In this document: positions 3,218 through 56,651 of the stretch, one piece after another
Position numbering within the stretch: the first letter of the stretch is position 1
Layout of the letters: each line of letters opens with the position of its first letter
Origin: a virus
Strand: one strand, 5' to 3'
IMG/VR virus record: IMGVR_UViG_3300022562_001814
Span: 1-64,000 of that record
DNA: 64,000 bases
The notes under the pieces: model-generated
What the model was told of the DNA's origin: nothing
Seen by the model: only the letters and a program-made list of their open reading frames with translations
The model's database searches: none
Position numbers and translations under genes: made by a program

Positions 3218-3634
3218 ATGCATATGAAAAAAGATTTTGAAAAAAATCGAGATCAAATCATTCAAGAGTTTCTGAAGGGAGGTGAACCAATAATAGAAAC
3301 CATTAAAAATCATTTAGATGATAGTTATTTAGATGATTTTACGCCATTAGAAGTTAAAGTCCATGGCTCTAACTTTGATAGAGCGTTTAAAACGTTTAGA
3401 GCAATAGTTCAAAAAGAAAAAATATTATCATTATATAAACAAAAACAGACATATGAAAAACCGTCTGTTAAACGTAGACGTAAAAGAAATGAAATGCGTC
3501 AAAAAAGATTAGAATTAGAATCTAAACATAGAAAAATTCTTTCAGGAGAATTTGAAAAAGAATTGAAGAAAAAACAAAAGTTAAAAGAACTTAAAAAACA
3601 ATTGAAAGAAACTCGTAGAAATGATTTAGGTTGA
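3218..3634 (+). CDS. rpsU: Phage-encoded ribosomal protein bS21 homolog with N- and C-terminal extensions
   Basis: Core EVKVHGSNFDRAFKTFRAIVQKEKILSLYKQKQTYEKPSVKRRRKR fits the bS21 pattern V.V...F+.A++.F...YEKPS.KR+RK. Confidence 0.8.
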   Translation: MHMKKDFEKNRDQIIQEFLKGGEPIIETIKNHLDDSYLDDFTPLEVKVHGSNFDRAFKTFRAIVQKEKILSLYKQKQTYEKPSVKRRRKRNEMRQKRLELESKHRKILSGEFEKELKKKQKLKELKKQLKETRRNDLG

Positions 3635-3635
3635 A

Positions 3636-4031
3636 ATGAAAACAGAGCCCCAAGATAGTGCTGTGATTAAAAATCCTAATAGAAATAATTCACAAATCCC
3701 CGAGCCTTATATTCCTGAACATGTAAGGCTCGGGAGGGCTCCAATTATACAGGATTTTTCATCTTTAGATGGGGATATAATTGGAGAAGAAACTACATCG
3801 TTACCAACTAAACCAACTGAAAATGTTTCCTATACACCTAAGGTTGGTGAATTTATTCTAATGGTGTTAGGGAAAGTTATTTCTCATGGAAATGAGCAAC
3901 AGATTTTATCTGAAGCCAAGTCTATCTTATATAAAGAAAATCCTAATTTTATTAATTCTAATATATCAATAGATGATATAGTAATTCTTAAAAGAATAGG
4001 ATTGAAGGTAGGGATTTTTTTTAATGAATGA
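3636..4031 (+). CDS. Hypothetical protein
   Basis: 131-aa ORF tightly packed in the operon. Confidence 0.6.
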   Translation: MKTEPQDSAVIKNPNRNNSQIPEPYIPEHVRLGRAPIIQDFSSLDGDIIGEETTSLPTKPTENVSYTPKVGEFILMVLGKVISHGNEQQILSEAKSILYKENPNFINSNISIDDIVILKRIGLKVGIFFNE

Positions 4032-4611
4032 AATAAAAGAAAAAGAATCTAGGAACGCAAGTGATATTCTTCTTTCTTTAGAAGAAAAGGTTTTGGCATT
4101 AACTCAATTAATAGTTGTTAATGATATGAATAATAAATTAATTCTAGATCGTTTAAATAAATTATTAAATAATACTTCTAGCTCTTTACCAAAAGAGCAA
4201 ACAAAAATTTCGAATAAAATTATTTCAAACAATCCAATTGTTGAAGTAAATAAAAATCCAGTTTCTACTAGAAAACAAACTGTTACTGAACCGGTAGGTA
4301 AAAAAGTAAAAGAAAAATCATCCATCAAAGAAATAAAAATACCTGTAGTTCAACGTATAACAGATGGTAAAGGTAATGATTTATATTTAGCCGATGTTGT
4401 AATTACTAATGCTATTAATAAAGAACTGATGGTTAAATTAAAAACCAACGCTACAGGCAAATGGCAAACCCAATTGCCACCGGGTTCTTATAATATACAT
4501 ATATCTAAACTTATCGATGCAGAGTCCATGAATAAAATAGAATCATTACAAGTTATTGAAGTTGAATCTAAAATGAAGTCTTTACAGCTTCCTGTAGCTA
4601 TTATTAGATAA
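4024..4611 (+). CDS. Hypothetical protein with a C-terminal carboxypeptidase-regulatory-like beta-sandwich
   Basis: KTNATGKWQTQLPPGSYNIHISK resembles the T+..G.+...L.pG.Y.+ pattern. Confidence 0.5.
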   Translation: MNEIKEKESRNASDILLSLEEKVLALTQLIVVNDMNNKLILDRLNKLLNNTSSSLPKEQTKISNKIISNNPIVEVNKNPVSTRKQTVTEPVGKKVKEKSSIKEIKIPVVQRITDGKGNDLYLADVVITNAINKELMVKLKTNATGKWQTQLPPGSYNIHISKLIDAESMNKIESLQVIEVESKMKSLQLPVAIIR

Positions 4612-4621
4612 TAGGTAAAAT

Positions 4622-4948
4622 ATGACTGATGGTTATTTTTCTAGATCTGAAAAGTTCAAAACTTGTTCTGAAAATCAAAATAAACTTAATTTAAGATTAA
4701 AAGAAATTGCTAATGAAATAGCAATATTACCGAAATTACCTCAATCGATGGAAGATTGGATAGATTCTTGGACAGATCCTTCTAAAAAAGGATTTAGTAT
4801 GTCCGCATTTAATAAACATTTGAAGATTAAAAAAGAATATTCAAAATTAATAGATAGTTCTAATTCTAATTTACGAGAAATGAAAATTTTAGTAATAGAA
4901 GAATTATTAGAAAAAATAAATAATACACTCAACAACGGCAGTGATTAA
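4622..4948 (+). CDS. Hypothetical protein
   Basis: ORF preceded by an AGGT Shine-Dalgarno (SD). Confidence 0.6.
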   Translation: MTDGYFSRSEKFKTCSENQNKLNLRLKEIANEIAILPKLPQSMEDWIDSWTDPSKKGFSMSAFNKHLKIKKEYSKLIDSSNSNLREMKILVIEELLEKINNTLNNGSD

Positions 4949-5444
4949 AACTTTATTACTAAATTATAATTATCAAATAATTGCTTTCATTGATGAGAAG
5001 CGAGCTATCAGGCTTTTATTTAAAAATAAAGCAGAAGTTATTTCTAATTGGATCGGTAGAAAAATTAATTCAATTAATGGATTTATAGAACATCCTGCAA
5101 CACTTAAAATGAAATATTTGGTTAATCTCAGACCAACCAAATTAACATTCTCTAGAAAATTAGTTTTAAGAAGAGATGAATATACATGCTGTTATTGTAA
5201 TAAAAAATACAAATATAATAATTTAACTATTGATCATATTATACCCAAAAGCTGTGGAGGAGAAAATTCTTTTATTAATTGCGTTACAGCGTGTATTCCC
5301 TGTAATATGAAAAAAAGAAATAGAACTCCAGAACAAGCTGGAATGGTTCTTAAAATCAAACCAAAAATACCGGATAAATTTTTATGTTATTTTCCAGGTG
5401 ACGCCGAATGGCATGATGATTGGTTATTCTTCATCTCCAATTAA
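4941..5444 (+). CDS. HNH endonuclease (McrA-like)
   Basis: RRDEYTCCYC...LTIDHIIPKSCGG...NCVTACIPCNMKKRNRTPEQAGM. Confidence 0.92.
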   Translation: MIKTLLLNYNYQIIAFIDEKRAIRLLFKNKAEVISNWIGRKINSINGFIEHPATLKMKYLVNLRPTKLTFSRKLVLRRDEYTCCYCNKKYKYNNLTIDHIIPKSCGGENSFINCVTACIPCNMKKRNRTPEQAGMVLKIKPKIPDKFLCYFPGDAEWHDDWLFFISN

Positions 5445-5591
5445 ATCTATAACAATTTTGTGTATTTCTTTTTCTTCTTTCTCTTCTTCAATATTGACAT
5501 ATAATTTATCAATATTTAAATATATTTGTTCGTCAGCTAAATTGTTTTGTTCTTTGTGTTTTTCATAAAGAAAATCCCAAAAATTAGACAT
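5424..5591 (-). CDS. Small acidic hypothetical protein
   Basis: MSNFWDFLYEK...; fills an otherwise empty gap; one of only two plausible minus-strand genes. Confidence 0.45.
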   Translation of the reverse strand: MSNFWDFLYEKHKEQNNLADEQIYLNIDKLYVNIEEEKEEKEIHKIVIDLIGDEE

Positions 5592-5628
5592 ATTTATCAC
5601 CAACAATATATCATATTATGAGTACAAA

Positions 5629-5835
5629 ATGCTATGTTTAACTTGTTCTAAATTATCAGTATTATCTAGTAAAAGAATTTGCTTACGATGTAAAGGTGGG
5701 ATATATAATAATATGTCTGTTGTATGTGATAATTGTTCAAATAAAGAACAATTATGTTCTATTTGTTTAAAAAAAATATTTAATTCAAATAATAGAATAA
5801 GACCAAAATCAAATTGTAGTAGTTGTGGTAAATAA
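5629..5835 (+). CDS. Small Cys-rich zinc-binding protein
   Basis: Five CxxC pairs in 68 aa. Confidence 0.65.
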   Translation: MLCLTCSKLSVLSSKRICLRCKGGIYNNMSVVCDNCSNKEQLCSICLKKIFNSNNRIRPKSNCSSCGK

Positions 5836-6365
5836 TGATTATAAATGATGAAAATATTTTAAGATCTTCAAATAAAGATGTGGAGCCTGAAGAAGCTGAA
5901 GCTCTTATTAAGACCTTGGAAAAAGAATTAAATTATTCTTTTTTGATGGGTAGACCTGGTATTGGATTGGCTTGTCCACAAATCGGAATAAACAAAAAAG
6001 CAGCCATAGTAAGAATTAATACAAATGGAGTTTATGATTTATCTGTAAATTTGATTAATGCTAAAATTGAAAAAGGATATAATCCTTTTATTTTTAAAAA
6101 CGAAGGATGTTTATCATTTCCCGATCAATTAAATGATACGACTAGATATCAAGAAATACATGTTATTAATAATGCTGTTAAGCCACATGCATTTATTGCA
6201 ACAGGATTATTTGCTGTAGCTATTCAGCATGAATTAGATCATTTAAATGGTATATTGTTTTTTGATAGGATTGTTAAAAAAAATGTAGCCTCTAAAATGA
6301 GACCAAATGATTTATGTATTTGTGGATCAGGTATTAAATATAAACGTTGTTGTAAATTAAAGTGA
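5835..6365 (+). CDS. def: Peptide deformylase with C-terminal SEC-C motif
   Basis: GIGLACPQIG, EGCLS and QHELDHLNG motifs; tail RPNDLCICGSGIKYKRCC. Confidence 0.93.
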   Translation: MIINDENILRSSNKDVEPEEAEALIKTLEKELNYSFLMGRPGIGLACPQIGINKKAAIVRINTNGVYDLSVNLINAKIEKGYNPFIFKNEGCLSFPDQLNDTTRYQEIHVINNAVKPHAFIATGLFAVAIQHELDHLNGILFFDRIVKKNVASKMRPNDLCICGSGIKYKRCCKLK

Positions 6366-6372
6366 GAAAAAT

Positions 6373-6564
6373 ATGGAAAATCCAAAAGAAATGTTATTAA
6401 TAGAAACTGTCGTTAAAATGGCTGCTATTCAAAAAATTATGATTAGAAAAGGTTTGTGCACTGAAGATGAAATTTATAATGAAATGACTACAATATCTAA
6501 AGAATTAGTAGAGCAGCTCAGAGCAACTATCCCGGAAATTTTCACTCCCAACGCTCAAAATTAG
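6373..6564 (+). CDS. Hypothetical protein
   Basis: 63-aa ORF in operon context. Confidence 0.55.
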   Translation: MENPKEMLLIETVVKMAAIQKIMIRKGLCTEDEIYNEMTTISKELVEQLRATIPEIFTPNAQN

Positions 6565-6592
6565 TGATATATAAGCTGTATAGGAGAATCGT

Positions 6593-6847
6593 ATGACAAA
6601 AGAAAAACAAACAACATCTCAGCAATCAGTCTCTAAAACAATTTGGGCAGAGATTAAAGACAAAGATATTGATGTATTTGCAATGGTATCTAAAGTATCT
6701 GATTATTGTGAATATATAGATATTGATGAAAAAAAATGCTATTTAGTATGTAAAGCTACCGCTGTTCTTCCTGCTTTAGAGATGGCTTTAGGCAGTAATT
6801 ATAAATGTAATTCATCTGATAAATATATTGTTATAGAAAAGGTATAA
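6593..6847 (+). CDS. Hypothetical protein
   Basis: AGGAG SD; preceded by TGATATA. Confidence 0.65.
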   Translation: MTKEKQTTSQQSVSKTIWAEIKDKDIDVFAMVSKVSDYCEYIDIDEKKCYLVCKATAVLPALEMALGSNYKCNSSDKYIVIEKV

Positions 6848-6848
6848 T

Positions 6849-7295
6849 ATGCCATTTGATGACGACGATGATACTGAAATTAAAGGACCTGTAAGGAAAA
6901 TAAGTCTTAAAAAAGTTAACCCACCACAACCAGAACGTCCAAGTACAAAAGAAATATTTGAACAACAGGCAGAACAAAAATTTTCTCAAATTGAAGATTA
7001 TAAACAAAAAATATGGGATTTATCTATTAAATATAAATCTTTTATAGAAAGTAAAATACTTCCTGAAAACCGTGGTCCAATTACTTCTAATCTAGAAAAA
7101 GAAGTTTTAGATAAATTGGTTCAATTATCACTTGATATGAATGAAGATGAAACCCAAGAACAGGGTGTCGGTAGTACAGCATTATGCATGCTGCTTATGA
7201 AATGTATGTTAATTCAACGCGATATTATAAATTCTCTAAATTTTAAATTAGAACAAATAGAACAAAAAATTAAAACTAATGACAAAAATATCTAA
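6849..7295 (+). CDS. Hypothetical protein
   Basis: 148-aa ORF in operon context. Confidence 0.6.
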   Translation: MPFDDDDDTEIKGPVRKISLKKVNPPQPERPSTKEIFEQQAEQKFSQIEDYKQKIWDLSIKYKSFIESKILPENRGPITSNLEKEVLDKLVQLSLDMNEDETQEQGVGSTALCMLLMKCMLIQRDIINSLNFKLEQIEQKIKTNDKNI

Positions 7296-7449
7296 AGATC
7301 TTATATTGAATATGATCACAGAAGAAAAAAATTTTTATTCTTCTTATTTGTCGTTATGTAGTTACTATAAGGTGGAACCCGATCCAATTGCAACAACCAA
7401 ATGTTCATCAAAACTGGAAATACTAGAACATATTCTGAAGTTGATGTAG
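7279..7449 (+). CDS. Small hypothetical protein (56 aa, not in the ORF track)
   Basis: Translated by hand: MTKISKDLILNMITEEKNFY...EHILKLM*; fills the gap between its neighbours. Confidence 0.45.
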   Translation: MTKISKDLILNMITEEKNFYSSYLSLCSYYKVEPDPIATTKCSSKLEILEHILKLM

Positions 7450-7961
7450 TTCAACAAACAATAAATAAAGCCAATAGTGTAAATTTATTGGATATTTTTA
7501 ATATTTATGATATAAATATTAATATTTATAGTAGAAAAATAAATTGTCCTTTTCCGTTTCATAAAAACGGGCAAGAAAAATCAGCATCATTTTATCATTA
7601 TAATGATAATAATAGTTTCTATTGTTTTGGTTGTAAAACAGGTGGTAAGCCGGTTGATTTTATATCTATGTATGAAGGTATTAGCAGATATAGTGCTGCC
7701 TTAGCTATTATAAATAATTTTGATACTTATGAAATAGAAAATGTTGAAAATAATATTGTAAATTATTCTAAAATTTATTTAGAATTTTCACATCTGATTA
7801 GATCGTTTATTATTAAAAATAAAGATAATGAAAAAGCTATTATATATGCTGAATATATATGTTCGGCTTTTGATAGTGTTAGATCTAAATATGTGTTAGA
7901 TCCAAATGGGTTAAATATAATATTTAGTAAACTTAAAAGAAAATTAGAAGAATTTAAATAA
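7401..7961 (+). CDS. Stand-alone CHC2 zinc-finger (DnaG zinc-binding domain) protein
   Basis: CPFPFHKNGQEKSASF...FYCFGCKTGGKPVDFI; no TOPRIM domain. Confidence 0.85.
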   Translation: MFIKTGNTRTYSEVDVVQQTINKANSVNLLDIFNIYDININIYSRKINCPFPFHKNGQEKSASFYHYNDNNSFYCFGCKTGGKPVDFISMYEGISRYSAALAIINNFDTYEIENVENNIVNYSKIYLEFSHLIRSFIIKNKDNEKAIIYAEYICSAFDSVRSKYVLDPNGLNIIFSKLKRKLEEFK

Positions 7962-8003
7962 TATAATATTATACACAATAAATTTATTGTGTGAAAGGTT
8001 AAA

Positions 8004-9191
8004 ATGAACTTATTAATTGTGGGCGATGTGCACCTCGGGAAGGGCCAGAATTTGGGGCGACAATCTATTGGATCCGCGCTTAACAGTAGAATTATTGATC
8101 AAATTAATTTATTGGACTGGGTGTATGATATTGCTGTTAATAAAAATATTAAACATATTATTCTAACCGGAGATGTATTTGAAGATCCTAAGCCTCATTA
8201 TAATCTGGTTGTGTTGTTTTTAGATTGGTTACAAAAATGTTCCGACTATAATATTCATGTCCATATTGTTGCTGGTAATCACGATATTTTGCGTAGTGGA
8301 CAATTCATTACTTCCCCATTAGATATTATATCTTCAGCAGATATTCAAAATGTTTTTGTTTATAAAAAATTAAATACTTTACATTTAGAAAATGTATCAA
8401 TAACATTTCTTCCGTTTAGAGATCGTAGATCCTTTAATACTGATTCAAATAGTGAAGCAATTTCTTTGCTTAGACAACAAATATTATATGAAAGTTCTAT
8501 TATTGATAATTTGAATTTAAAAATACTAATTGGTCATTTAGCTTTAGAAGGAGCCATTCCTGTTGGATATGAATTAGATGAATTAACCAATGAATTACAT
8601 TGTCCAATTGATATGTTTAAAAGGTATGATTATGTATTAATGGGACATGTTCATAAATTTCAATTTTTATCCGATGATTTAAATATAGGTCACATAGGTA
8701 GTTTGGATATATCTGATTTTGGAGAAGCAGATCAACAAAAATATATAGCTATAATTTCTCCAGATCAAAACGATAATAAAATAGATTATATACAAATACC
8801 AACTCGCCCATTAAAACATATTGTAATTAAATTAGAAGATAATATTAATGTAACCCAATTTATTGAAGAAAATTTGAGTAAATATGCAGATGAATTAAAC
8901 AATGCTATTGTGAAAGTATCAATTATTTTGCCAGCAAATTATTCATTATCCATAGATAGAAATTTAATAGAAAAATATATTTACAGCATGGGCGCATTTC
9001 ATATTTCTAAGATATCAGAAGAAAAAACTTTCGTTTCATTGAAAAAACAAATTAATGAATCGATAGATAATTCTGTAAATGAATTATCTGCCATTAAAAC
9101 GTATTCTTCTTTAGTGGATGAAAAAATTAGAATAGATTTTATTAATCTAGCTTCTACTATTGTTCAAGAATATAAGGAAAATTTAAAATAA
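8004..9191 (+). CDS. sbcD: SbcD/Mre11-like metallophosphoesterase nuclease
   Basis: GDVHLG, TGDVFE, AGNHD, GHVH motifs; adjacent to an SMC-type ATPase. Confidence 0.92.
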   Translation: MNLLIVGDVHLGKGQNLGRQSIGSALNSRIIDQINLLDWVYDIAVNKNIKHIILTGDVFEDPKPHYNLVVLFLDWLQKCSDYNIHVHIVAGNHDILRSGQFITSPLDIISSADIQNVFVYKKLNTLHLENVSITFLPFRDRRSFNTDSNSEAISLLRQQILYESSIIDNLNLKILIGHLALEGAIPVGYELDELTNELHCPIDMFKRYDYVLMGHVHKFQFLSDDLNIGHIGSLDISDFGEADQQKYIAIISPDQNDNKIDYIQIPTRPLKHIVIKLEDNINVTQFIEENLSKYADELNNAIVKVSIILPANYSLSIDRNLIEKYIYSMGAFHISKISEEKTFVSLKKQINESIDNSVNELSAIKTYSSLVDEKIRIDFINLASTIVQEYKENLK

Positions 9192-11365: not shown

Positions 11366-11366
11366 A

Positions 11367-11954
11367 ATGATGTTAAAAATTGCTTTATCTGGAAAAGCTG
11401 GAAGTGGAAAAAATACTGTCGCTAATATAATCTCTGATTATTTTGCTTTAAAACCACATGAAACCTATATATATGCCTTTGCCAATCCTATTAAAAAAAT
11501 AATAGAAGTAGCTTTCCCTGAATGTGATCTAGAATCTTTGTATGGTAATTCTGAATTAAGACAAAAAAATATTATATGCGATATTAATAGGTATTATATT
11601 TCTACCGAATTACCTACGTATAGACAAGCGGCAGTTGATTTAGGCAAATGGGGTAGGAAGTACTCTCCTCGTTTTTGGATTTGGCATGCTATGAGAGCTT
11701 ATGATCTAAATAAAGGTAATAAACTTTTTATCATTAGTGATCTTAGATTTCCAGAAGAATACGAATGGGTTAAATCAGAAAATTTTGTACTTTGTAGATT
11801 AAAAAGAAATAATTCTCATAAAATTGATGATATTTCTGAACATATTCAAGATCAATTGCCAGATAATTTATTTGATTTTGTTATTGAAAATAACTCATCT
11901 TTAGATGTATTAAAAACACAAATACATGAAATGATTAGAAATATGTGTCCATAG
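11367..11954 (+). CDS. Deoxynucleoside monophosphate kinase
   Basis: SGKAGSGKNT P-loop, FANPIK, ISDLRFPEE, HISE. Confidence 0.85.
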   Translation: MMLKIALSGKAGSGKNTVANIISDYFALKPHETYIYAFANPIKKIIEVAFPECDLESLYGNSELRQKNIICDINRYYISTELPTYRQAAVDLGKWGRKYSPRFWIWHAMRAYDLNKGNKLFIISDLRFPEEYEWVKSENFVLCRLKRNNSHKIDDISEHIQDQLPDNLFDFVIENNSSLDVLKTQIHEMIRNMCP

Positions 11955-11981
11955 TATAATTATTTGGCATTTAATGGAATT

Positions 11982-12302
11982 ATGCAATCAGATAATAACA
12001 TAAAAAAATTATTTATAAATAAATACTCTGCTGTTGGGGAGGAAAAGTTTTATAAATTTTTAATTACTTATGCTCTTAATAGAATAGTAGATTTTTCTGA
12101 TAAAAATAATGATAAAAAATATAATCCAGCTTTAGAGCTTTTAGATTATTATGATATGTTTTTGAAATTATATAGACGTGAAGGAGAAGATATTTATTTA
12201 GATTTAGCTAAACAATTTAGAAGAGCTGCTCACAAAATTTATAGAATAATTCTTAAAAAGAAATTATCTGATAAAAATAATAAATTTTTAAATTTAGTAT
12301 AA
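11982..12302 (+). CDS. Hypothetical protein
   Basis: ATG at 11982 preferred over the track's TTG, which lies inside a candidate promoter. Confidence 0.6.
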   Translation: MQSDNNIKKLFINKYSAVGEEKFYKFLITYALNRIVDFSDKNNDKKYNPALELLDYYDMFLKLYRREGEDIYLDLAKQFRRAAHKIYRIILKKKLSDKNNKFLNLV

Positions 12303-12303
12303 T

Positions 12304-13296: not shown

Positions 13297-13352
13297 ATTA
13301 TTTATTAATATTAAATTATTTACTTCTATTGGCTTGATATAGAAAGACTGGA

Positions 13353-14138: not shown

Positions 14139-14189
14139 CAAATGTGATTTGAAAAGAAATTTAAAAATACTAAATAGATTGGAATTAAA

Positions 14190-15452
14190 ATGTTAATTGA
14201 AGTTAAAGAAATAGAATATTGTAGATTAAACGTTAAATTTGAAGGTGACGAAGAAAACGTTAAAAATAAAGAATATGAAATGTTACAACATTTTAAACAA
14301 GGTAAAGTCCCAGGTTTTAGAGAAGGTAAGGCGACAACAGAAGCTGTTAAATTTCATTTTAAAAATCAGATCAACGAAGCTGTTAAAAATGAATTAGCTT
14401 ATCAAGCCTTTCAAACGGTTATAGCTGAAAAAAATATTAAACCATTTGGACAGCCACAATTTCTCGCTATTAATTTAGATGGTTCTAAATTTAAATGTGA
14501 ATTTTGTGTTAATCAGGTTCCTAATATTGAATTATCTCAATATAAAAATTTTGAATTACCAAAGGGGACTACGCCCAATTCGATAGAAATGTCGGAAAAA
14601 ATATTACAAGAATTAAGAGTTAGAAATGGTGAAACACTACCTTTCTCCGATGAAGACTTTATTCAATTAGGTGATACGGCAATTATTAATTATATAGGTT
14701 ACTTGCCTGGCGAAGAAGTGCCAACAATTAAAAAAGATGGAGAAATTTTTGTAGTTGGAAAAGCTCATGCAGATGCTTTTAATGATAACATATTGGGTAT
14801 GAAATTAGGTGAATCTAGAGAATTTACTACAATTCTTTCTTTGGATTCGGCCGCTCAGCATATTGCTGGAAAAGAAGTACGTTTTGTAATTGAATTAGCT
14901 ATGGCATCAAAATCTGAGCCCGCGCCTTTAGATGATGAATTGGCAACCAAAGTTGGATGTAAAAATCTCGAAGAGCTAAATAATATAGTTCAAGGCATGT
15001 CTTCTAATAGAGTTAAAGAATTAGAGACCAAATATTTATCTGATCAAGTTGCCGCTAGACTATTAGAAAGTCATAATTTTGAATTACCATCTTGGTTAAC
15101 AAGTTTTGAAGCTAAATTATTTGCAAAACAACAAGGTCATGCGTGGGAATCTTTATCTGATGAACACAAGAGTAATTTTCTTAAAATGGCAGAACAAAAT
15201 GTTAAATTATCTATTATTTTAGATAAAGTGCGGGAAATAGAACCCGATGCACAATTAACAGATGAAGAAGTATTTTCTATTATTAAACAGAGCATATCAA
15301 AATATAAAACAATGCTTAACATGGCAGATAAATCAGATGAAGAGGTATTAAGTAAAATAGCTGAATCAGGATATACGAATGCTTTAATTTCTCAAGTTAG
15401 AGATGATGCAACTATGGATTTTATAATTAAAAATTCTTCTATCTTAGAATAA
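14190..15452 (+). CDS. tig: Trigger factor
   Basis: Ribosome-binding signature VPGFREGKA, FKBP-like middle (GDTAIINYIG...GMKLGESREF...AGKEVRF), LDDELA; 420 aa, full length. Confidence 0.9.
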   Translation: MLIEVKEIEYCRLNVKFEGDEENVKNKEYEMLQHFKQGKVPGFREGKATTEAVKFHFKNQINEAVKNELAYQAFQTVIAEKNIKPFGQPQFLAINLDGSKFKCEFCVNQVPNIELSQYKNFELPKGTTPNSIEMSEKILQELRVRNGETLPFSDEDFIQLGDTAIINYIGYLPGEEVPTIKKDGEIFVVGKAHADAFNDNILGMKLGESREFTTILSLDSAAQHIAGKEVRFVIELAMASKSEPAPLDDELATKVGCKNLEELNNIVQGMSSNRVKELETKYLSDQVAARLLESHNFELPSWLTSFEAKLFAKQQGHAWESLSDEHKSNFLKMAEQNVKLSIILDKVREIEPDAQLTDEEVFSIIKQSISKYKTMLNMADKSDEEVLSKIAESGYTNALISQVRDDATMDFIIKNSSILE

Positions 15453-15464
15453 TGAGGTAATCAA

Positions 15465-15755
15465 ATGAAAGACAAACATTTCCCAGAAAAATATAAAAAG
15501 AAATTAGATAATTTTGCTCAAGGGTATATGGATAATGTAGATTCTTCTGACACGGAAGAGATTAAAAAATTAATTTTATCTTCTGAAAGAAATTTATATG
15601 AAATTGAATACGAAAAAGATAATAATCCAAAAATTTTGAAAATGAAAGAGGATCTTAAGGCAGAAATGTCTCCATTTACAGAGGCAAAACACACCGAAAC
15701 GGCTAAAATTAAATATTGTCTTTTCACGTTAGAGGGTCGTGGAGTTCGTATTTGA
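15465..15755 (+). CDS. Hypothetical protein
   Basis: GAGGT SD, 96 aa. Confidence 0.65.
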   Translation: MKDKHFPEKYKKKLDNFAQGYMDNVDSSDTEEIKKLILSSERNLYEIEYEKDNNPKILKMKEDLKAEMSPFTEAKHTETAKIKYCLFTLEGRGVRI

Positions 15756-16036
15756 TTAAAATAAGTAAAAAAGAATTACAGGCTTGTTGTGGTAAAAAAC
15801 AAATAATTTGGAAATTAAATATTCCAATCAAAAAAGATTACTTGTCTATACTACAACAGGCTGGATTTCATTATGTAAAAACATATTTTGATGCCGGAAT
15901 GATGTATATTGAAGATAAAAATTTAATAGCTACTGGAATTTTTGGTTTAAATGAAATTACTGTTAAATGTAAAACTAAAGAATGTACAGATAGTGCAACT
16001 AAATTGGAACAAATAATTTTAACCAAATTTAATTAA
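15752..16036 (+). CDS. Hypothetical protein
   Basis: Probable TTG start overlapping the upstream TGA; ACCG motif; start uncertain. Confidence 0.5.
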   Translation: MIKISKKELQACCGKKQIIWKLNIPIKKDYLSILQQAGFHYVKTYFDAGMMYIEDKNLIATGIFGLNEITVKCKTKECTDSATKLEQIILTKFN

Positions 16037-16680
16037 TGAATGTTGTTAAAAAACAAGCTCATGATTATGAATTAATTGCTATGAGTTGGCATGAAGCTGC
16101 TCATACAATTTGTGGTTTATACAATTTCACTAAAATTTATAATGTTCATGTTATGTCAGATAAACACACAAATGGCAATACATTATATGAAATATGTGAT
16201 CCAGATAATATTGAAAATAAATTATTAGCTAAAATATTATTAATATTTGAAGTACAAACATTATATGCCGGATTAGTGGGTGAAAAACTTTATTATAAAG
16301 AAATATGTGGTTCTGATAATTTTCCTATGCATCTTCGTATCGGTTCATCTAACGATATTCAAGATGCTGCTAGAATTATTCATAAATATAATTTAGCAAA
16401 TCCTGGTAAAGCTAGGTTTTTGTTTAAAAAACAAGTCCAAAATGATACTAAAAATATTTTAACAGAATATTGGGACGATATTAGATTAGTGGCGCACGTC
16501 CTTTATAAAAATAAAGAATTAGAATATGATGAATTAAAATATTTCTTAACAAGAAAATCTATTAATAAAGAATTTTGGAGAGATAGATTTAAATATATAA
16601 AGCTTATTTATGGAGGTAATGAATTAGATGAAAAATATTTAAAAGATATAATTTTACAAAATTCCGTTATTATTATGTAA
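16036..16680 (+). CDS. Stand-alone FtsH/M41-like zinc peptidase domain
   Basis: WHEAAH, LYAGLVGE and GSSNDIQDA mirror FtsH HEAGH, GGRAAE and GASND; no AAA+ domain. Confidence 0.72.
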   Translation: MNVVKKQAHDYELIAMSWHEAAHTICGLYNFTKIYNVHVMSDKHTNGNTLYEICDPDNIENKLLAKILLIFEVQTLYAGLVGEKLYYKEICGSDNFPMHLRIGSSNDIQDAARIIHKYNLANPGKARFLFKKQVQNDTKNILTEYWDDIRLVAHVLYKNKELEYDELKYFLTRKSINKEFWRDRFKYIKLIYGGNELDEKYLKDIILQNSVIIM

Positions 16681-16765
16681 TATTACCTGTTTTAACAAAT
16701 GGAATATATAAACCATAGAACTACTTGTTAGGCTTTGTTAAAATACAATATTGTGAGAGGTTCAA

Positions 16766-19700: not shown

Positions 19701-20284
19701 TATTTGCTTTAGAAAAACATTATTTAGGAGAAGCTTTTATTTGTCCTAAAAAAGAAGCATTCGGAACCTTCTTTTTTACAAAAACACATGCTAATATTTC
19801 AACAATTAAATTAAGTAAAAATAGAACATTTTTACCATCAATTAAAGCTGAAATTAAAACAATTTTTGAATTAAAAATAAAAAAGGAAAATAGTAGGTTA
19901 ATAGGCCAGGAAATGGCTAAAGTTGGTATAGAAGACGAATTTGGAATTCAATGTAATTTAACTATATTTCCCGATCGTTGGCAAGAAGTTAAAAAAAGAA
20001 TGAAAATTAATGGTAAAGGGAAAGCGTATTTTGAACCTGGATGTGTTATTCATTTTGCCGGAACTTGTAATTTATATGAAAATGAAATGGGTGTTATTTT
20101 AGAAACATTATTAGAAAGTATGCCTCCTCCAGCGCTTCCACGTGATTTAAAAGCTAGAAAAGTTGCTATTAAAGATTCTGTAACTATCTCGGAAAATTCT
20201 GATTTAATTACCGAGTTAGAAGATCAGTTATTTACAGAAGGTCTTATAGATTTGGATGAAGATCCGTTTTCTTTGGATATATAA
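16766..20284 (+). CDS. dnaE: DNA polymerase III alpha subunit
   Basis: PHP domain SLHNHSYYS/LTDHG, GPGRGS, PDIDQD, KIDVLGL, FNKSHA. Confidence 0.97.
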   Translation: MSFVSLHNHSYYSILDALPSPKELFRRAKELNQPALALTDHGSFAGAWDAYKASKETGVKLIIGSEFYFLSDASKKDEKVRHIILLAKNNSGYRNLLSLNRSGFDNPIITGRKVIPIIDWNLLSKYSDGVICLTACGNGIIGQHINAKNFAAAENDIKHLIDIFGTDNLGIEVQPHALSRQATLYHNGINQVFTNFHLIKLAEKFNLKVVPTTNTHYLKKEHAPMHDVLLAIGAMQPIYSNARLKYPVHEFYLKSYEEVKAFFARNFGDSFAEEICKNSLYFADKCEEPDWIDPKFSNPYGKELPVFAVKETSDYDKFQDWLVKQSDKIQKLSEDSAYLRFKCYEAFDLKFKNKLSLIKHKEYIERIEEELSVLDYQGFSSYMLIVADYINWARKNNIGIGPGRGSVGGCFIAYLLGIHKADSIRYGLIFPRFQNRERSSPPDIDQDIAASDREKVISYIQQKYGQDKVAFVSNFSRITPKVYARDIARSLEFGGNRKEAVNIGNSIADSISKESKNSIDFNDLKLSPLFMEYVKRYPNLASNSEILGKIRNFSTHAAALVISNRPLIGLVPVRKDKDGHQALEYEKYNTEENGLLKIDVLGLSTLDLIEQTILLINKNKKNKPISLEDIDFEDYDKKTYDLISKGDTYGVFQLGTSAGTIDLCKKIKPKNIEDLAIITTLARPAAKNIIDDFIKTREGKREFKLLHPSLRNAFEKTYGFGLFDESILQLGKDVAGWSLNESDRIRKMIKEKGKDPNKAKKLREEFIDGAIKNGIGRTMASKIWDEEINKFQGYTFNKSHAVLYSFISYITAYLKAHYPVEFLLANLIAENNSNTPDAEENIDKAKMELRRYGVNILPPDINKSEMEYQLLNNNTLLTGLDALKYVGHDAIQDIINKRPFTSFDDFMLRVDTRKVRSSAIQALAASGCLDIFNITRRSIYLYCSDYRKKLQVWLKKHDPKTEKFNFPWPNESEWSKSELFALEKHYLGEAFICPKKEAFGTFFFTKTHANISTIKLSKNRTFLPSIKAEIKTIFELKIKKENSRLIGQEMAKVGIEDEFGIQCNLTIFPDRWQEVKKRMKINGKGKAYFEPGCVIHFAGTCNLYENEMGVILETLLESMPPPALPRDLKARKVAIKDSVTISENSDLITELEDQLFTEGLIDLDEDPFSLDI

Positions 20285-20308
20285 TATGTGAGAAAAAAGG
20301 TTTCATAT

Positions 20309-21043
20309 ATGAAATGTTATAATTGTAAATGTCAGGTTTCTTCTGATTTTAAATATGCTTTTTCTACTAATTGTTGTCCTAAATGTGGTGATTTTTTAAT
20401 GCCAGTAGAAGTAAAATCTTTGTATGTAAAAATACAAGATTTTCTTAATAAAGATAATAATGATATAGGTGATTTAATAGTATGGTTTCATTCTGAATTC
20501 ATTGCTAATAAGAATGAAAATAATTCATCACAAGTTAATGAAGAGTTGGAAGCTAAAACAGAAATTAATGAAACTATTGTTGAAGTGGGTTTAGATGAAA
20601 ATCTTGAAGATATACAAGTTCAGGAATATGCAGATGCCACTTTGATGTTTAAAAAACCCAAACATTCTCCTAAAAAAATTCAGACCCAAAAAGAACAATC
20701 TCTACTTTCACAAGAAAGAACTAATCTCTTTGCTAAAAGAGCCGGTCTAGATAAACTAGATCAAAATAAAAATAAATATGACAATATTATTAAAGATATT
20801 CAATCTAGTTCTGATGATTCATTAAATGATGATATGGGGTATTCAGAATATAATTCTGATGAAACGTATGAAGAATTTGAGTCTCCCAACTCGTCCCCTT
20901 TATCTAGACAAGAAATTCAATCTGTTGCTAATTTATTTGATACCCCCGAACAATCAACTGATTTTAATGAAATACAAAAAATCCAAAAATTGGAACAATT
21001 AGCTATTACTGGTTCTGTTGGAGTAATTAGGAGATCTGAATAA
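20309..21043 (+). CDS. Zn-finger hypothetical protein with acidic tail
   Basis: N-terminal CYNC...CPKC; ATG 20309 follows an AAGG SD. Confidence 0.6.
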   Translation: MKCYNCKCQVSSDFKYAFSTNCCPKCGDFLMPVEVKSLYVKIQDFLNKDNNDIGDLIVWFHSEFIANKNENNSSQVNEELEAKTEINETIVEVGLDENLEDIQVQEYADATLMFKKPKHSPKKIQTQKEQSLLSQERTNLFAKRAGLDKLDQNKNKYDNIIKDIQSSSDDSLNDDMGYSEYNSDETYEEFESPNSSPLSRQEIQSVANLFDTPEQSTDFNEIQKIQKLEQLAITGSVGVIRRSE

Positions 21044-21355
21044 ATGGATCCTCAAATAAGAATTATAGATAATAAAAGAATTTTATTAACTCAAGAAGAA
21101 TGGGATTATTATCAATCTATCTGTAAATCTTATGATAAACAAAATTTCAAAGGCGAAGATTTATTTAAAGGATTATTTGAAAGTAATAATGAAGGTATTA
21201 TTACTTTTATTAAACCACCTAGTTCTAAATATACGAGCATGGAAGTATTTTTATATATTGTAGCTATTTTTCAACACCAGCATATGAGATTAATGTATAA
21301 ACAATTACAATCTTTAGTAAAAGAAGTAAAAACTTTAAAAGAAAAGAAAGATTAA
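21044..21355 (+). CDS. Hypothetical protein
   Basis: 103-aa ORF in operon context. Confidence 0.6.
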   Translation: MDPQIRIIDNKRILLTQEEWDYYQSICKSYDKQNFKGEDLFKGLFESNNEGIITFIKPPSSKYTSMEVFLYIVAIFQHQHMRLMYKQLQSLVKEVKTLKEKKD

Positions 21356-21359
21356 TTTA

Positions 21360-21779
21360 ATGAATCAGGAAGAATTAGAAAAATTATTAAATACCTGTTT
21401 AAATGAATTGACTGTAGTTCACCAAGGAGAATGTTCTACTGAGCGCGCCGAAAGAAACGCCGCTTTATTTTTGGAGGCTCAATTTAGATTGTCAGAATAT
21501 TTATCTGGCACCGAACTTCAAGCCAAACGTGTTAAATATGAGATAGAAAGAGTTGCTTCTCAAAAATATTTTGAATATAAAAGTGGAGCACTCGGTAATG
21601 AAAAAAAATTAACCGAAGCCGCCTTAGAACATGCAATATCTAAAGATGATGAAATATTTAAAATGAAAGAAGATATGATTCTAAAAGAATCGGAATATAA
21701 AAAATGGAATTATATAATGAATATTTTGTCCAATGGACATATAATGTATCGTGGCATGTCTCGTAGAGATAATATATGA
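21360..21779 (+). CDS. Helical protein, possible UvsY-like recombination mediator
   Basis: 139 aa, helical/coiled, just upstream of recA; function inferred from size and context only. Confidence 0.4.
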   Translation: MNQEELEKLLNTCLNELTVVHQGECSTERAERNAALFLEAQFRLSEYLSGTELQAKRVKYEIERVASQKYFEYKSGALGNEKKLTEAALEHAISKDDEIFKMKEDMILKESEYKKWNYIMNILSNGHIMYRGMSRRDNI

Positions 21780-21960
21780 ATAAAAAATGTTCTAAATGTA
21801 AAATCATTAAAAATTTCAATGATTTTACTCCATATCAATGCTTCTATGGAAGATGAAAATTTCAAAAAATGTTGGTCATTAGATAATTTAAGACCTTTAA
21901 ATTCTAAACAAAATATATTAGATGGTTCTAATCGAATTAGATATAGTAAAAAAAAGATAA
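21776..21960 (+). pseudogene. Internally deleted HNH homing endonuclease remnant
   Basis: MNKKCSKCKIIKNFNDF joined out of frame to SMEDENFKKCWSLDNLRPLNSKQNILDG. Confidence 0.65.
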
Positions 21961-21970
21961 AAGGAAAATT

Positions 21971-22975
21971 ATGGTTGTAAAAGAAAAAGTATCTACAAAT
22001 ACAGAAAATAAAAACAATTTAATTGCCGGACTAGATATTGAGAAGTTAGTACAAAAAGCTAAAGAGAGTTATTCTAAAAAAGATAAAGGACTTGCAAAGC
22101 AATTATCAACTGGTGCCACCATCCTAAGACCATCAGATGATAAAGATTTCGTTGTATGGACTAAAGGCGATCATTGGAAAGCCTTAACCAATCTTAAAGG
22201 ATTACCGTTTGGACGTATAGTTCAAATATCTGGAAAACCCGATAGTGGCAAATCCACTCATGCCATGGCATTTATGAAATTTGCTCAAGATCAAGATGTG
22301 CTCGTTATTTTATGGGATAGTGAAAGAAAATTTGGTAGAAAACGTTTTGATGAAAAAATGGATGGTAATTCAGATAAATTGCTAGTTGTTGATACTAACA
22401 AAATTATTGATGGTGCAAGAGCAGTTGCACAATTTGTGCATGCCGCTAAAGAAATGAATCCAGATGTCAAAATTTTGATCGTTTGGGATAGTGTTGGCGC
22501 TTCTTTAAATTCTACAGAAGATAGAGAAGATGATGAAGAATTTTCACAGCAGCCAGGGGTTTCGGCAAAAGAGAATTCATATGCAATCAAAAAATTTAAC
22601 AAATTAGCTAATAAATATAGAGACAAAGAAACTGGCGAAGAAAGTATTGCTACTTTAGTAATTAATCAAACATATGCTTCAATTGGTATGGGTGCCCCAG
22701 CTCAAATTGAAAAAGGCGGCTCCGAAATTTATTATTTATCTAGCGTTATAGTTCAATTATCACGTAAAAAAGATTTGAATAGAGTTCGTGGTGGTGATAA
22801 ATATAAATATGGTATTGTTTCACGTGCCAAAGTTAAGAAAAATCATTTATTCGAAGGAGATGAATGTATTAGCGAATTGGATTTGGTAATTTCAGCCGAT
22901 GGTGTTCATCTCGCTAATGATGTCAAAAACTTTGATGATATTAAAGGTTGGGATGATGAAGAGGGAGACGAATAA
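21971..22975 (+). CDS. recA: RecA/UvsX-like recombinase
   Basis: GLPFGRIVQISGKPDSGKST, WDSE, IVWDSVGA, VINQ. Confidence 0.9.
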   Translation: MVVKEKVSTNTENKNNLIAGLDIEKLVQKAKESYSKKDKGLAKQLSTGATILRPSDDKDFVVWTKGDHWKALTNLKGLPFGRIVQISGKPDSGKSTHAMAFMKFAQDQDVLVILWDSERKFGRKRFDEKMDGNSDKLLVVDTNKIIDGARAVAQFVHAAKEMNPDVKILIVWDSVGASLNSTEDREDDEEFSQQPGVSAKENSYAIKKFNKLANKYRDKETGEESIATLVINQTYASIGMGAPAQIEKGGSEIYYLSSVIVQLSRKKDLNRVRGGDKYKYGIVSRAKVKKNHLFEGDECISELDLVISADGVHLANDVKNFDDIKGWDDEEGDE

Positions 22976-23274
22976 TGCCTATAATTGATATTACACCCAC
23001 AAGCTCACGCATACATGAACGTCCGGTTAAAATAACTCCAATTTATTTAATAACAGAAGTATTATCAAGCGGTACACGCTGGTTGGCCGTTAAATTAGAT
23101 GAGTCTAACAATGTTATCAAGTTTGTTGGGGTAGAGCTAAAAAAAAGTGAAAAACGTGTAGAAGAAAATTATCAAGAAATTTTAAATTCTGCGGACAAGA
23201 CGTTATATAAGGAAGTGTGGTTGCCTTGGCACCAAATTAATTCAATACAAAATCTTATTTTTAAACAAAAATAG
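22975..23274 (+). CDS. Hypothetical protein
   Basis: 99-aa ORF with TAATG coupling to recA. Confidence 0.6.
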   Translation: MPIIDITPTSSRIHERPVKITPIYLITEVLSSGTRWLAVKLDESNNVIKFVGVELKKSEKRVEENYQEILNSADKTLYKEVWLPWHQINSIQNLIFKQK

Positions 23275-23292
23275 TAATTAAGGAGAAATAAA

Positions 23293-23577
23293 ATGAAAAA
23301 AGTATTAACAAATCCAGAAGTAGTACAAACAGTTCGTACCCGTGTTCTTTCGCTTCTTCAACGCCGTAAAGGTCGTTGGCAAGGCACAATGACAGATTTG
23401 CTTGTTGCAATTAGTGGGCGACAAGTACCTGCAATTTGGCCAGGATCTGCATCTGCTTTACGCAGAGTTGTAAATAAAGTTGTTCCAGCAATTCGTCGTG
23501 AAGGATATAAAGTTCAATTCACACGTACACCAGATCATGATCGTAGACGTGTAGTTAGTTTTACTCGTGTCCGTTAA
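23293..23577 (+). CDS. Small Arg-rich, probably winged-helix nucleic-acid-binding protein
   Basis: Strong AAGGAG SD; CGT/CTT codon usage like the capsid gene; very basic. Confidence 0.6.
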   Translation: MKKVLTNPEVVQTVRTRVLSLLQRRKGRWQGTMTDLLVAISGRQVPAIWPGSASALRRVVNKVVPAIRREGYKVQFTRTPDHDRRRVVSFTRVR

Positions 23578-23654
23578 TTAGTAATAATAATCCATTAAAT
23601 AAGATCGAATAAATATCTTTTATGATTAAATGATCGGAAAAATAAGGAAAATAA

Positions 23655-24341
23655 ATGACAACATTAAAACATGGAGAAATGGCTTGGAATGATGAATCTA
23701 TTGGTACTGATGACCGTAAAGGAAAAAGTAAAGATCGTTATCTTAAATTAAAGCCAGGCTCAAATCTAATTAGAGTATTAACATTACCACATCAATATTT
23801 TCAACACAAATACACTTTTGATGGTGAAAAGGGTTATGGACATCGCATAGATTGTTCAGCCAAACACGGGTTTTGTCCGGTCTGTGCCAAAGGTAACAAA
23901 CCTAAAAAACGATGGTTGTTGGGCGTTATTGATAGATCAACAAATTCATATAAAATTTTAGATGTAGGTTGGTCTATTTTAAGTGATATTCATACTTATG
24001 CAAGTGATGATGATTGGGGCGATCCTATACAATATGATTTTGATATTGTAGTTAATCCTAATGGTGGTCCAATAGGTTATTATAAAGCTGTTGCAAAGCC
24101 TAAAAGACCTCTTTCTGCACAAGATTTAGTGCTAAAAGAGCAAGTTAATCTTGAATACTTGGAAAGTAGGTGTTCACCTCCTGAACCAGGACAAGTTGAA
24201 GAACGATTGAATTCTTTAATGGAAGATTTTCTTAAAGGCGGTAGTTCTGGACAAGTTGAAAAACCGGTTACTTTTTCTTCTAATAGTGAAGATAGTGATT
24301 TTCCAGATAGTGATGCAAAAGCAATTAATTCTCCTTTCTAA
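23655..24341 (+). CDS. Single-stranded DNA-binding protein (gp32-like)
   Basis: LKLKPG.N.IRVL, H...C...CPVC zinc site, WGDP..YD, acidic tail ending in PF. Confidence 0.75.
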   Translation: MTTLKHGEMAWNDESIGTDDRKGKSKDRYLKLKPGSNLIRVLTLPHQYFQHKYTFDGEKGYGHRIDCSAKHGFCPVCAKGNKPKKRWLLGVIDRSTNSYKILDVGWSILSDIHTYASDDDWGDPIQYDFDIVVNPNGGPIGYYKAVAKPKRPLSAQDLVLKEQVNLEYLESRCSPPEPGQVEERLNSLMEDFLKGGSSGQVEKPVTFSSNSEDSDFPDSDAKAINSPF

Positions 24342-24358
24342 GAATAATTATTGATTGT

Positions 24359-24393
24359 AAAAGGAGAGATGGAATTCCATCTCTCCTTTTTTT
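24359..24393 (+). terminator. Rho-independent terminator (perfect 32-bp palindrome plus T run)
   Basis: AAAAGGAGAGATGGAATTCCATCTCTCCTTTT followed by TTT. Confidence 0.85.
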
Positions 24394-24419
24394 ATATCTT
24401 TTGATATATAAAAGATATA

Positions 24420-24986
24420 ATGAAAATAATGTCTTTTGATGTTTCTAGCTCGACAATAGGCTGGGCGGTATTTAATATTAAAAATAATAAAATAAATCTT
24501 TTTGATTCTGGGTTTTTTAAACCTATCAAAAAAAATAATATTTTTGAAAATCTTTCTTATGTGAGAGAGCAGATAAAAAATTTATTAGATGAATATAATC
24601 CAGATGAAATAGCTATTGAAGAGATTGCAAGATTTATGCCAAAATTAAGTTCTGCTAATACTATTATCGTGTTAGCATTGTATAATAGAATGGTCGGTTT
24701 AACAGTTTTTGATCATTTAAAAAAAATTCCTTATTTATATAATGTTATGACGATTCGACATAGTATTAAATTATCTAAAGAATTACCCAAAAAAGAAGAA
24801 ATTCCTGAACTTGTAGAAACGATTTTAAATATTACTTTACCAAGAAAATACACCAAAAATGGAATCATCAAATCCGAATTATATGATGAAGCTGATGCGA
24901 TTGCGTGTGGGCTTTGTCACTGGGTGAAAACTAATAATTTACCTTTAATTAAAATAACATCAAGTAAAGTCAGGAAGAAAAAATGA
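24420..24986 (+). CDS. ruvC: RuvC-like Holliday junction resolvase
   Basis: SFDVSSSTIGWA, IAIEE, DEADAIAC acidic triad pattern. Confidence 0.85.
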   Translation: MKIMSFDVSSSTIGWAVFNIKNNKINLFDSGFFKPIKKNNIFENLSYVREQIKNLLDEYNPDEIAIEEIARFMPKLSSANTIIVLALYNRMVGLTVFDHLKKIPYLYNVMTIRHSIKLSKELPKKEEIPELVETILNITLPRKYTKNGIIKSELYDEADAIACGLCHWVKTNNLPLIKITSSKVRKKK

Positions 24987-25966
24987 AAATTCAAGAAGCT
25001 TATAAGGTATTAGAAAGCTCATCAGATATTTCAGATGAAGATTTAAAAATTAAATATAAAGATATGGCAAAGAAATATCATCCTGATATTTATAAAAAGG
25101 AACCAGATAAATTTAAAAAAATTAATGAAGCTTATCAATTTATTTTAGATTATAGAAAAAATCCTGAAAAATATGAACCTAATATGAAAAATGGATTTTG
25201 GGGTAGGGTTCCTGATATAGCTAATGATTTTTTTATTAATTTTGGTTTTGAAAATGAGTGGTCTAAACCAAAAGAAATTAAACCAATATTTGTTTCTATC
25301 AATTTAAATTTTAAAGAATCGGTTTTAGGATGCAGCAAAGAAATTAATTATACTAGAAATATTAAATGTAAAGACTGTCAGGGAGCTGGTATTAAACGTA
25401 AGGGTAATGGTTGTGAAACGTGTGACGGGTTTGGTAGATCAACTATTAACAATAAAGGAATGATTTTTCAAACAAAATGTTCAAAATGTCAAGGTAAAAA
25501 TGTCACGCAAAATACTTGTGATAAATGTAAAGGCAAATGTGTAATTAATGAAAATAAACAAGGAAATATTCACGTTCCAGCCGGCATTAAAAATGAAGAA
25601 ATATTAAGAGTTAATGGTGCTGGAAACTTTGTGGGAAGAACTTTTTTTGCTGATGAATATACAGATTTACATATCAAGGTACATGTTAAGTCATACAAGG
25701 ATATGTATATAGAAAATAATAATGTTATTTCAAAATTAAATATTTCATTATTGGAGGCTTTAGAGGGCAAAGAACAAGAAATAGAAACTATTTATGGTAA
25801 TAAGAATGTTACTATTCCACCTAAAACTAAACATTTAGATCAAATTAAAATTCCTAAATGTGGTGTTAATAATACTAACGGAATGCATGTAATTAAATTA
25901 TTTATCGAATATCCTCAAGATGTAACAGATATAATTGGAGTACTTAAAAATGATGTTCATAATTAA
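24983..25966 (+). CDS. dnaJ: DnaJ chaperone
   Basis: J-domain YHPD; four CxxCxG repeats; DnaJ C-terminal domain. Confidence 0.92.
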   Translation: MKIQEAYKVLESSSDISDEDLKIKYKDMAKKYHPDIYKKEPDKFKKINEAYQFILDYRKNPEKYEPNMKNGFWGRVPDIANDFFINFGFENEWSKPKEIKPIFVSINLNFKESVLGCSKEINYTRNIKCKDCQGAGIKRKGNGCETCDGFGRSTINNKGMIFQTKCSKCQGKNVTQNTCDKCKGKCVINENKQGNIHVPAGIKNEEILRVNGAGNFVGRTFFADEYTDLHIKVHVKSYKDMYIENNNVISKLNISLLEALEGKEQEIETIYGNKNVTIPPKTKHLDQIKIPKCGVNNTNGMHVIKLFIEYPQDVTDIIGVLKNDVHN

Positions 25967-39023: not shown

Positions 39024-39027
39024 ACAA

Positions 39028-41946: not shown

Positions 41947-42006
41947 TTAAATATACATCGAACTCAATAATTTTGTATTCTTCTGAATTATAAGTTCGAG
42001 GTATAA

Positions 42007-45050: not shown

Positions 45051-45385
45051 TGAGTAAATTAGCAGGATTATTACCAAAACTAAAAGGGGAATTAGTGGAA
45101 GTTTCTGTTGGTGATGATTATGAAGATATTGTTTTAAGTGATACTACCAAAAAAGTTAATGGAGTAATTTTTGGAGTTTTAGAAGATATTGTAGATGATT
45201 TTATGATTCTTAATTCTTTATATGTTAATAAAGATGGAGAAATAAAAACCGGAAATATCGTATATATAAATATTTTTCAAATAAAAATATTTACTAAAAT
45301 TAAATCACAAGGCTCATTAAATGATGTCTTATTAAGCTCTGCTCATAGTAGAAGAATAAAACAACTTTTGGGTCTTAATGAATAA
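45050..45385 (+). CDS. Hypothetical small beta-rich protein
   Basis: 111 aa, TAATG-coupled. Confidence 0.55.
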   Translation: MSKLAGLLPKLKGELVEVSVGDDYEDIVLSDTTKKVNGVIFGVLEDIVDDFMILNSLYVNKDGEIKTGNIVYINIFQIKIFTKIKSQGSLNDVLLSSAHSRRIKQLLGLNE

Positions 45386-47459: not shown

Positions 47460-47502
47460 GCAATATCAAAGCATTTATTTGAACAAATATTAACGAGGAT
47501 AT

Positions 47503-47643: not shown

Positions 47644-47650
47644 GATATTA

Positions 47651-51043: not shown

Positions 51044-51054
51044 TAGGAAATATT

Positions 51055-52172: not shown

Positions 52173-52245
52173 AATTTTGCATAAATTTTTTATGCTTGAT
52201 ATATATCTTAATAAGATTGAATAATTTATACAAAAGGCGGATACC

Positions 52246-52938: not shown

Positions 52939-52940
52939 CC

Positions 52941-56648: not shown

Positions 56649-56651
56649 TGA

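Follow-up and report, generated by a model that had tools for sequence, protein, structure and literature searches.

The window analysed here is a stretch of 64,000 nucleotides, the first 64 kb of the 200,737-base virus record IMGVR_UViG_3300022562_001814, itself about 47% complete. It carries genes for ribosomal protein bS21, peptide deformylase (PDF), trigger factor (TF), a DnaJ-like co-chaperone and a stand-alone M41 peptidase domain, all of which are real and phage-borne. A sequence-only reading had placed these five genes within about 23 kb, on the plus strand and interleaved with replication genes, and had seen in them a nascent-chain toolkit that remodels both initiation and the exit-tunnel side of host ribosomes. 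The arrangement was confirmed at 3218-25966, with topA, sbcD/sbcC, an exonuclease gene, dnaE, recA, ssb, ruvC and primase as replication neighbours. A co-occurrence survey in IMG/VR showed that trigger factor, deformylase, bS21, DnaJ and a methionine aminopeptidase (MetAP) are conserved across the lineage and present in 13/13 near-complete relatives of about 360-480 kb. We regard them as maintained core genes which, on balance, likely form the phage's own set of exit-tunnel factors during infection, supplementing those of the host. Directly observed were the genes themselves, the folds and the catalytic or docking motifs of their products, and the retention of the genes throughout the lineage. 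What stood of the sequence-only reading were thus phage-borne, conserved and lineage-wide genes, with MetAP in 13/13 relatives, but not the peptidase, clustering as a sign of a module or the term 'remodels'.

Trigger factor (420 aa; 14190..15452, + strand) scored above the TIGR00115 cut-off (191 bits, cut-off 180.2). Its structural model (pLDDT 85) found E. coli trigger factor as best fold match over the full length (1w26, E 1.6e-20, TM 0.68) and also matched the N-domain structure 1oms and FKBPs; the ribosome-binding, FKBP-like and C-terminal domains are all present. The ribosome-binding loop reads GFREGK in the window and fits G[FY]RxG[KR] in 75 of 101 homologues. It is among the best conserved parts of the protein, residues G42 and R44 being invariant in 101/101. 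The prolyl-isomerase pocket, formed in E. coli by I195, P196, F217, P218, Y221 and H222 (PMC6166725), fared differently: neither the YH motif (0/101) nor an FEGG-like motif (0/101) was found in the phage trigger factors, although the equivalents of F198 and F233 were kept in 95/101 and 86/101. An intact three-domain trigger factor with a GFRxGK loop, as first described, was therefore borne out for fold and loop but not for the isomerase pocket, where the FKBP motifs are lost. The pocket appears degenerate, and isomerase activity would be weak or none. Such loss is not unique to phages, as only 5/25 bacterial comparators had YH and 10/25 an FEGG-like motif. Since many bacterial trigger factors also lack the pocket, its loss lowers the claim to isomerase activity and not that to family membership.

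Among the 120 matches listed for this protein (query included), 102 had at least 35% identity and E < 1e-70, several of the close ones lying on 370-490-kb contigs; past these first 102, values dropped to E 9e-20 and 22-27% identity. A profile search yielded at least 150 clusters at 50% identity. A phylogeny against bacterial homologues was computed from 83 sequences, namely 15 near matches, a one-in-three sample of the 117 full-length representatives together with tail picks, 7 distant matches and 17 sequences from named bacterial or host-like records. In this tree a long branch (support 1.0; FastTree, midpoint-rooted) separates a deep clade of 58 phage-type trigger factors, not all of them shown to be viral, from 25 bacterial-type sequences. 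The 50,697 GenBank phage records gave 18 matches, all at about 22-27% identity. One annotated 'phage' match, CAKLQH020000005.1, comes from a bacterial chromosome, with tig-clpP-clpX on the contig, and could mislead anyone surveying phages for trigger factor; two further matches lie in 'unverified' records without annotation. A scan of GTDB with the clade returned one weak partial match; as the scan used a single pattern, it supports the clade's absence from bacteria only weakly. Phages with related capsid proteins, Bacillus phage G included, lacked trigger factor (0/4). In one homologue, P0179 (710 aa), trigger factor is naturally fused to an N-terminal part that resembles an exonuclease, in the same order as the window's genes.

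The deformylase (176 aa; 5835..6365, +; PF01327 and PF02810) passed the TIGR00079 cut-off with 106.5 bits against 103.95. Motifs GxGxAxxQ, EGCLS and HExDH were kept in 37/42, 42/42 and 41/42 full-length homologues, and the window's protein has all three. Its C-terminus consists of a short linker and a SEC-C motif (residues 158-173). Near-clade deformylases carried a SEC-C-like tail in 45/45 cases by a relaxed pattern and in 31/44 by a strict one; in the sister subclade the tail was present in 4/11 parsed sequences. E. coli PDF docks on the ribosome via its C-terminal helix (PMC8712518), and the metal-binding domain of SecA binds 70S ribosomes (PMC6620043), so by analogy the SEC-C tail may serve the deformylase as a docking aid.

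MetAP, of type I and 267 aa long, lies outside the window at G000:C1:152418-153221 (+), 137 kb from the block on the contig, and scored 183 bits with TIGR00500 (cut-off 171.35). Residues D109, D120, H184, E218 and E249, which we take to be the five metal ligands of the E. coli enzyme by equating the numbering, and the active-site histidine H92 were invariant in 16/16 sequences. New chains at the tunnel exit are handled in turn by deformylase, MetAP and trigger factor (PMC8185961). With MetAP found, the phage has all three of these factors, and the exit-tunnel reading of the gene set is strengthened by it.

The DnaJ-like protein (327 aa; 24983..25966, +), encoded between ruvC and primase, has the HPD motif, four CxxC pairs and the J, zinc and C-terminal domains (PF00226, PF00684, PF01556). 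Its score fell below the TIGR02349 equivalog cut-off and its G/F region is short. Searches of the phage records found HSP70 in 0/32, GroEL in 0/5 and formyltransferase in 0/5; as no phage DnaK was found, the protein would pass its clients to host DnaK.

bS21 (138 aa; 3218..3634, +) matched PF01165 over residues 45-97 (E 1.4e-14) and exceeded the TIGR00030 cut-off. Beyond the core it extends by 43 aa at the N-terminus and by a basic stretch of 39 aa at the C-terminus, and extensions at both ends were present in 29/29 parsed loci, the window's included. Some of the C-terminal extensions (L158, L160, L164, L170, L171, L176) show a pattern rich in Cys and His that might coordinate metal. A Shine-Dalgarno (SD)-like signal, AGGA, precedes 45/180 phage ATG starts against a background of 2.4%. 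This speaks against the kind of SD-less Bacteroidetes host that has been proposed for other phages with bS21 (PMC9723584). A scan with bS21 for the host gave a single unclassified bin contig and so no host assignment. One deformylase match, on an 8-kb contig of a metagenome-assembled genome, bore the label Cytophagaceae.

How widely the set occurs was assessed by scanning IMG/VR with an alignment of 101 trigger-factor homologues, which gave 63 loci; scans of the same database with single trigger-factor or MetAP sequences had no matches. Gene order in the 63 loci is that of the window, with tig in 63/63, dnaE in 63/63 and the M41 gene in 61/63. Whole records were surveyed for the 31 behind the longer loci. 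Every record was selected by its trigger factor and belongs to a single lineage; the collection was not dereplicated and includes several pairs that look almost identical. Within the near clade, deformylase was present in 31/31 records, a J domain in 32/32 and MetAP in 17/32; bS21 was found in 42/46, short fragments and the window's own record being added. When only near-clade records at least 90% complete were counted, deformylase, bS21, MetAP and DnaJ each reached 10/10. The block also occurs in a sister subclade (19 loci, two being contigs already seen). A search of 15 records there found deformylase in 14/15, bS21 in 10/15, MetAP in 5/15 and DnaJ in 5/5, and each of the four in 3/3 of the near-complete ones. 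Other translation and proteolysis genes were patchy in near-complete genomes: ClpP occurred in 8/10, initiation factor IF3 in 2/5 and a release factor in 3/5.

Any such reading would fall if host DNA had entered a phage contig through misassembly or binning. Two observations could be taken in favour of such an artefact, that the readable annotated phage trigger factor in GenBank belongs to the host contig mentioned above, and that IMG/VR labels 7/31 records 'provirus'. We checked whether the contig is chimeric with host DNA and saw no sign of it. The same gene order recurs in 63 viral loci, two records have direct terminal repeats, and the trigger-factor clade stands apart from the 25 bacterial-type sequences. 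The five genes have a third-position GC content (GC3) of 0.126-0.164, in line with the 0.156 +/- 0.031 of the region. Phage structural genes follow on the same strand (37182..63417, PHROG matches: large terminase from 37182, portal from 39028, head protease from 47651, major capsid protein from 62401), and the window's capsid protein recurs at 75-84% identity in 13/13 near-complete records. One public DNA run gave a contig for 2000-24388 and a second for 24361-40400, overlapping by 28 bases at near-equal depths of 14.5 and 14.7 and together spanning bS21 to portal; this run is possibly the source of the record and so not independent. An artefact is already largely refuted, and we give it hardly any credence.

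The fifth gene of the window did not keep its place in the set. The M41 protein (214 aa; 16036..16680, +) was recognised by HExxH motif, profile and fold. Its Pfam score of 23.5 bits is below the cut-off of 29.9; a profile match covers E. coli FtsH 399-502, and the model (pLDDT 94.7) has FtsH, AFG3L2 and YME1 as best folds. HExxH is present in 87/87 homologues, and the third-ligand residue D107, aligned to the GASND of FtsH, in at least 90% of 68. The protein consists of the peptidase domain only, without AAA+ ATPase and membrane anchor; it is an M41-like peptidase and not an FtsH. It was absent at the syntenic site in 18/19 loci of the sister search, the exception being a near-clade contig, and from sister whole records (0/5) in a search that had no internal positive control, although the same profile did find the near-clade copy. 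M41 is a later or lost addition, specific to one subclade and outside the core set, from which we dropped it because the sister subclade lacks it. Nothing links it to nascent chains, and the FtsH-like peptidase as a toolkit member was not upheld. A split FtsH, assembled from this domain and an AAA ATPase encoded before bS21 in relatives, was also considered and rejected: the ATPase scored far below the FtsH cut-off and had no match in the 200-kb contig that has the peptidase, a contig about 47% complete. The ATPase itself (about 435 aa, family unclear) occupies the site between topA and bS21 in 23/30 homologous loci; in the window this site holds a LAGLIDADG/HTH gene (2112-3071).

For the exit-tunnel set, we infer the following course of binding and activity. 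The phage would make its own deformylase, MetAP and trigger factor during infection, and these would visit host ribosomes, the deformylase perhaps helped in binding by its SEC-C tail. Deformylase would strip the formyl group from new chains and MetAP then the first methionine. Trigger factor would dock on host uL23 via its GFRxGK loop and act as a holding and folding chaperone with little or no prolyl-isomerase activity, and DnaJ would hand clients to host DnaK. bS21 likely acts separately, at initiation. The phage would likely gain the capacity to process its many large proteins once host gene expression declines. To say that the phage remodels the exit-tunnel side would overstate this, as these are soluble visiting factors and bS21 alone is a component of the ribosome.

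Several points weigh against a common exit-tunnel function. The set does not form one operon: MetAP is encoded at a distance of 137 kb, and the neighbours of DnaJ are ruvC and primase. Where E. coli has Lys46, the window's loop has a Glu, as do 22/101 homologues, and 7/11 parsed sister-clade deformylases have no SEC-C tail, which is therefore dispensable. A J motif does not guarantee a generic role, since the phage J-protein Rki of RB43 is not a general co-chaperone (PMC3486835). Finally, the survey concerns one lineage, found via trigger factor and not dereplicated; co-occurrence therefore reflects inheritance and is not independent evidence of a shared job.

Proximity does not help either. 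The 23-kb span is a property of a conserved core block whose replication genes are equally syntenic, and MetAP falls outside the window, elsewhere on the contig; clustering is thus not evidence of a module. An alternative is a group of independent core genes with jobs away from the ribosome and no common function: trigger factor could hold replisome or virion proteins in free form or chaperone their assembly, and DnaJ could help to start replication. Host DnaJ and DnaK help to start lambda replication. The placement of trigger factor between exonuclease and dnaE and of DnaJ between ruvC and primase would suit such roles, as would the exonuclease-trigger factor fusion P0179, the dispersion of the genes and the deep divergence of trigger factor from its bacterial counterparts (22-27% identity). 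The ribosome loop, however, is among the best conserved parts of trigger factor, and both N-terminal enzymes were retained together with it although the presence of IF3, release factor and ClpP varies, which fits a nascent-chain role better. We consider independent, off-ribosome roles possible but rather unlikely.

Phage factors might, on the other hand, do more than supplement: they could outcompete host TF, PDF, SRP or SecA at the tunnel exit and, together with the extended bS21, shift both synthesis and maturation toward phage proteins. Features specific to these phages, namely the degenerate isomerase pocket, the SEC-C tail and the bS21 extensions, would fit such a selective takeover. So would the role of uL23 as common dock of TF, SRP and SecA (PMC8185961), the substrate preference of a cyanophage PDF (PMC3660681) and the bS21 substitution proposed for other phages (PMC9723584). 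Yet no sequence feature shows selectivity, bacterial trigger factors lose the pocket as well (FEGG-like in only 10/25, YH in 5/25) and PDF specificity is loose (PMC8185961), which makes a takeover doubtful in our view. Just as doubtful is its boldest form, a complete, anciently diverged viral exit-tunnel machine made up of a phage-specific, pocketless TF family, a deformylase redirected to the ribosome by a SecA-type zinc tail, and MetAP; it would displace host factors along with SRP/SecA and, with extended bS21, control both ends of host translation to the advantage of phage proteins. A set supplementing host factors remains the reading we prefer.

Other features of the block and contig were also noted. 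Two small conserved ORFs follow trigger factor (15465..16036, +), with homologues in 78/82 and 73/82 loci. They are conserved in both subclades, one being helical and the other having a conserved CC motif in relatives; domain and atlas searches assigned no family to either. Primase is encoded in the window as two ORFs about 19 kb apart, 7401-7961 with a CHC2 zinc finger and 26275-27036 with the catalytic core and Toprim domain. At 27080-28006 an ORF with HTH and intein-splicing-like domains adjoins a NUMOD3 ORF, and 34252-35025 encodes a short CCA/poly(A) polymerase head domain (257 aa). Elsewhere the contig holds a cold-shock domain protein (76397-76621), a tubulin/FtsZ-like GTPase (136595-137968) and a small sigma-70 factor (146111-146737); no tRNA genes were found on its 200 kb. 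In relatives (L200:5271-7533 and others), HU-like and DksA-like genes, a tandem ClpP pair (in 8/10 near-complete records) and then FtsK lie upstream of the block. The major capsid gene is split into two pieces 1.1-1.2 kb apart in G004, G005 and G057, likely through interruption by an intron or homing endonuclease. An expression look-up listed no RNA dataset as holding the sequence.

Part of this gene set has been recorded before. In their main text, Al-Shayeb et al. 2020 describe PDF in phages as well as phage S21 extended at the N-terminus (PMC7162821). Table 5A of that study contains at least 23 trigger-factor and at least 19 MetAP matches, with both in at least 14 genomes, of which at least 4 are classed Judaphage in Table S2. 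One Judaphage genome has the order of the window (topA 521, exonuclease 537, tig 543, dnaE 547, recA 552, dnaJ 558, capsid 593), with MetAP near the ribonucleotide reductase (RNR) genes (PMC7162821). This gene order and the genome size of about 360-480 kb make Judaphage, or a sister group of it, the likely identity of our lineage. The gene set is thus already annotated in the 2020 supplementary table but undiscussed in the paper's text, whose main part is silent on trigger factor, MetAP, DnaJ and chaperones (PMC7162821). No analysis of the trigger-factor clade, its pocket, the SEC-C tail or a fixed set of PDF, MetAP and TF was seen there (PMC7162821). Our literature search, with subscription papers and bioRxiv supplements outside its scope, found no text devoted to trigger factor in phages. 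Accounts of how phages control translation usually centre on tRNAs, initiation and ribosomal proteins. That deformylase, MetAP and trigger factor are fixed while initiation and release factors are patchy suggests that co-translational maturation limits the growth of huge phages. The lineage is also a source of a large family of naturally diverged trigger factors and of deformylases with SEC-C tails, with which the roles of the isomerase domain and SEC-C at the ribosome could readily be probed in E. coli.

Among known phage systems are the Bacteroidetes bS21 phages of Chen et al. 2022, where bS21 likewise lies in a conserved core region (PMC9723584). There, however, the gene sits on the reverse strand among structural genes, whereas the window's is co-oriented with the replication block. 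Those phages reach 331 kb and their hosts usually lack SD use, while the window's phage genes have an SD-like signal; the paper does not mention trigger factor or deformylase (PMC9723584). The PDF of cyanophage S-SSM7, a tested phage enzyme, lacks the C-terminal helix, and its abstract does not mention SEC-C (PMC3660681). Rki of RB43 is a tested J-domain protein that proved not to be generic (PMC3486835), whereas the window's DnaJ has J, zinc and C-terminal domains. Both are single genes, unlike the set described here. In E. coli the corresponding cascade runs through PDF, MAP, TF and DnaJ/DnaK. The phage departs from it in a trigger factor without FEGG and YH motifs, a PDF that ends in SEC-C or in nothing, a tig gene outside a tig-clpP-clpX operon, and DnaK, GroEL and formyltransferase not being found among its genes; for the members it does encode, it draws on the same families, with the same folds and the same catalytic or docking motifs.

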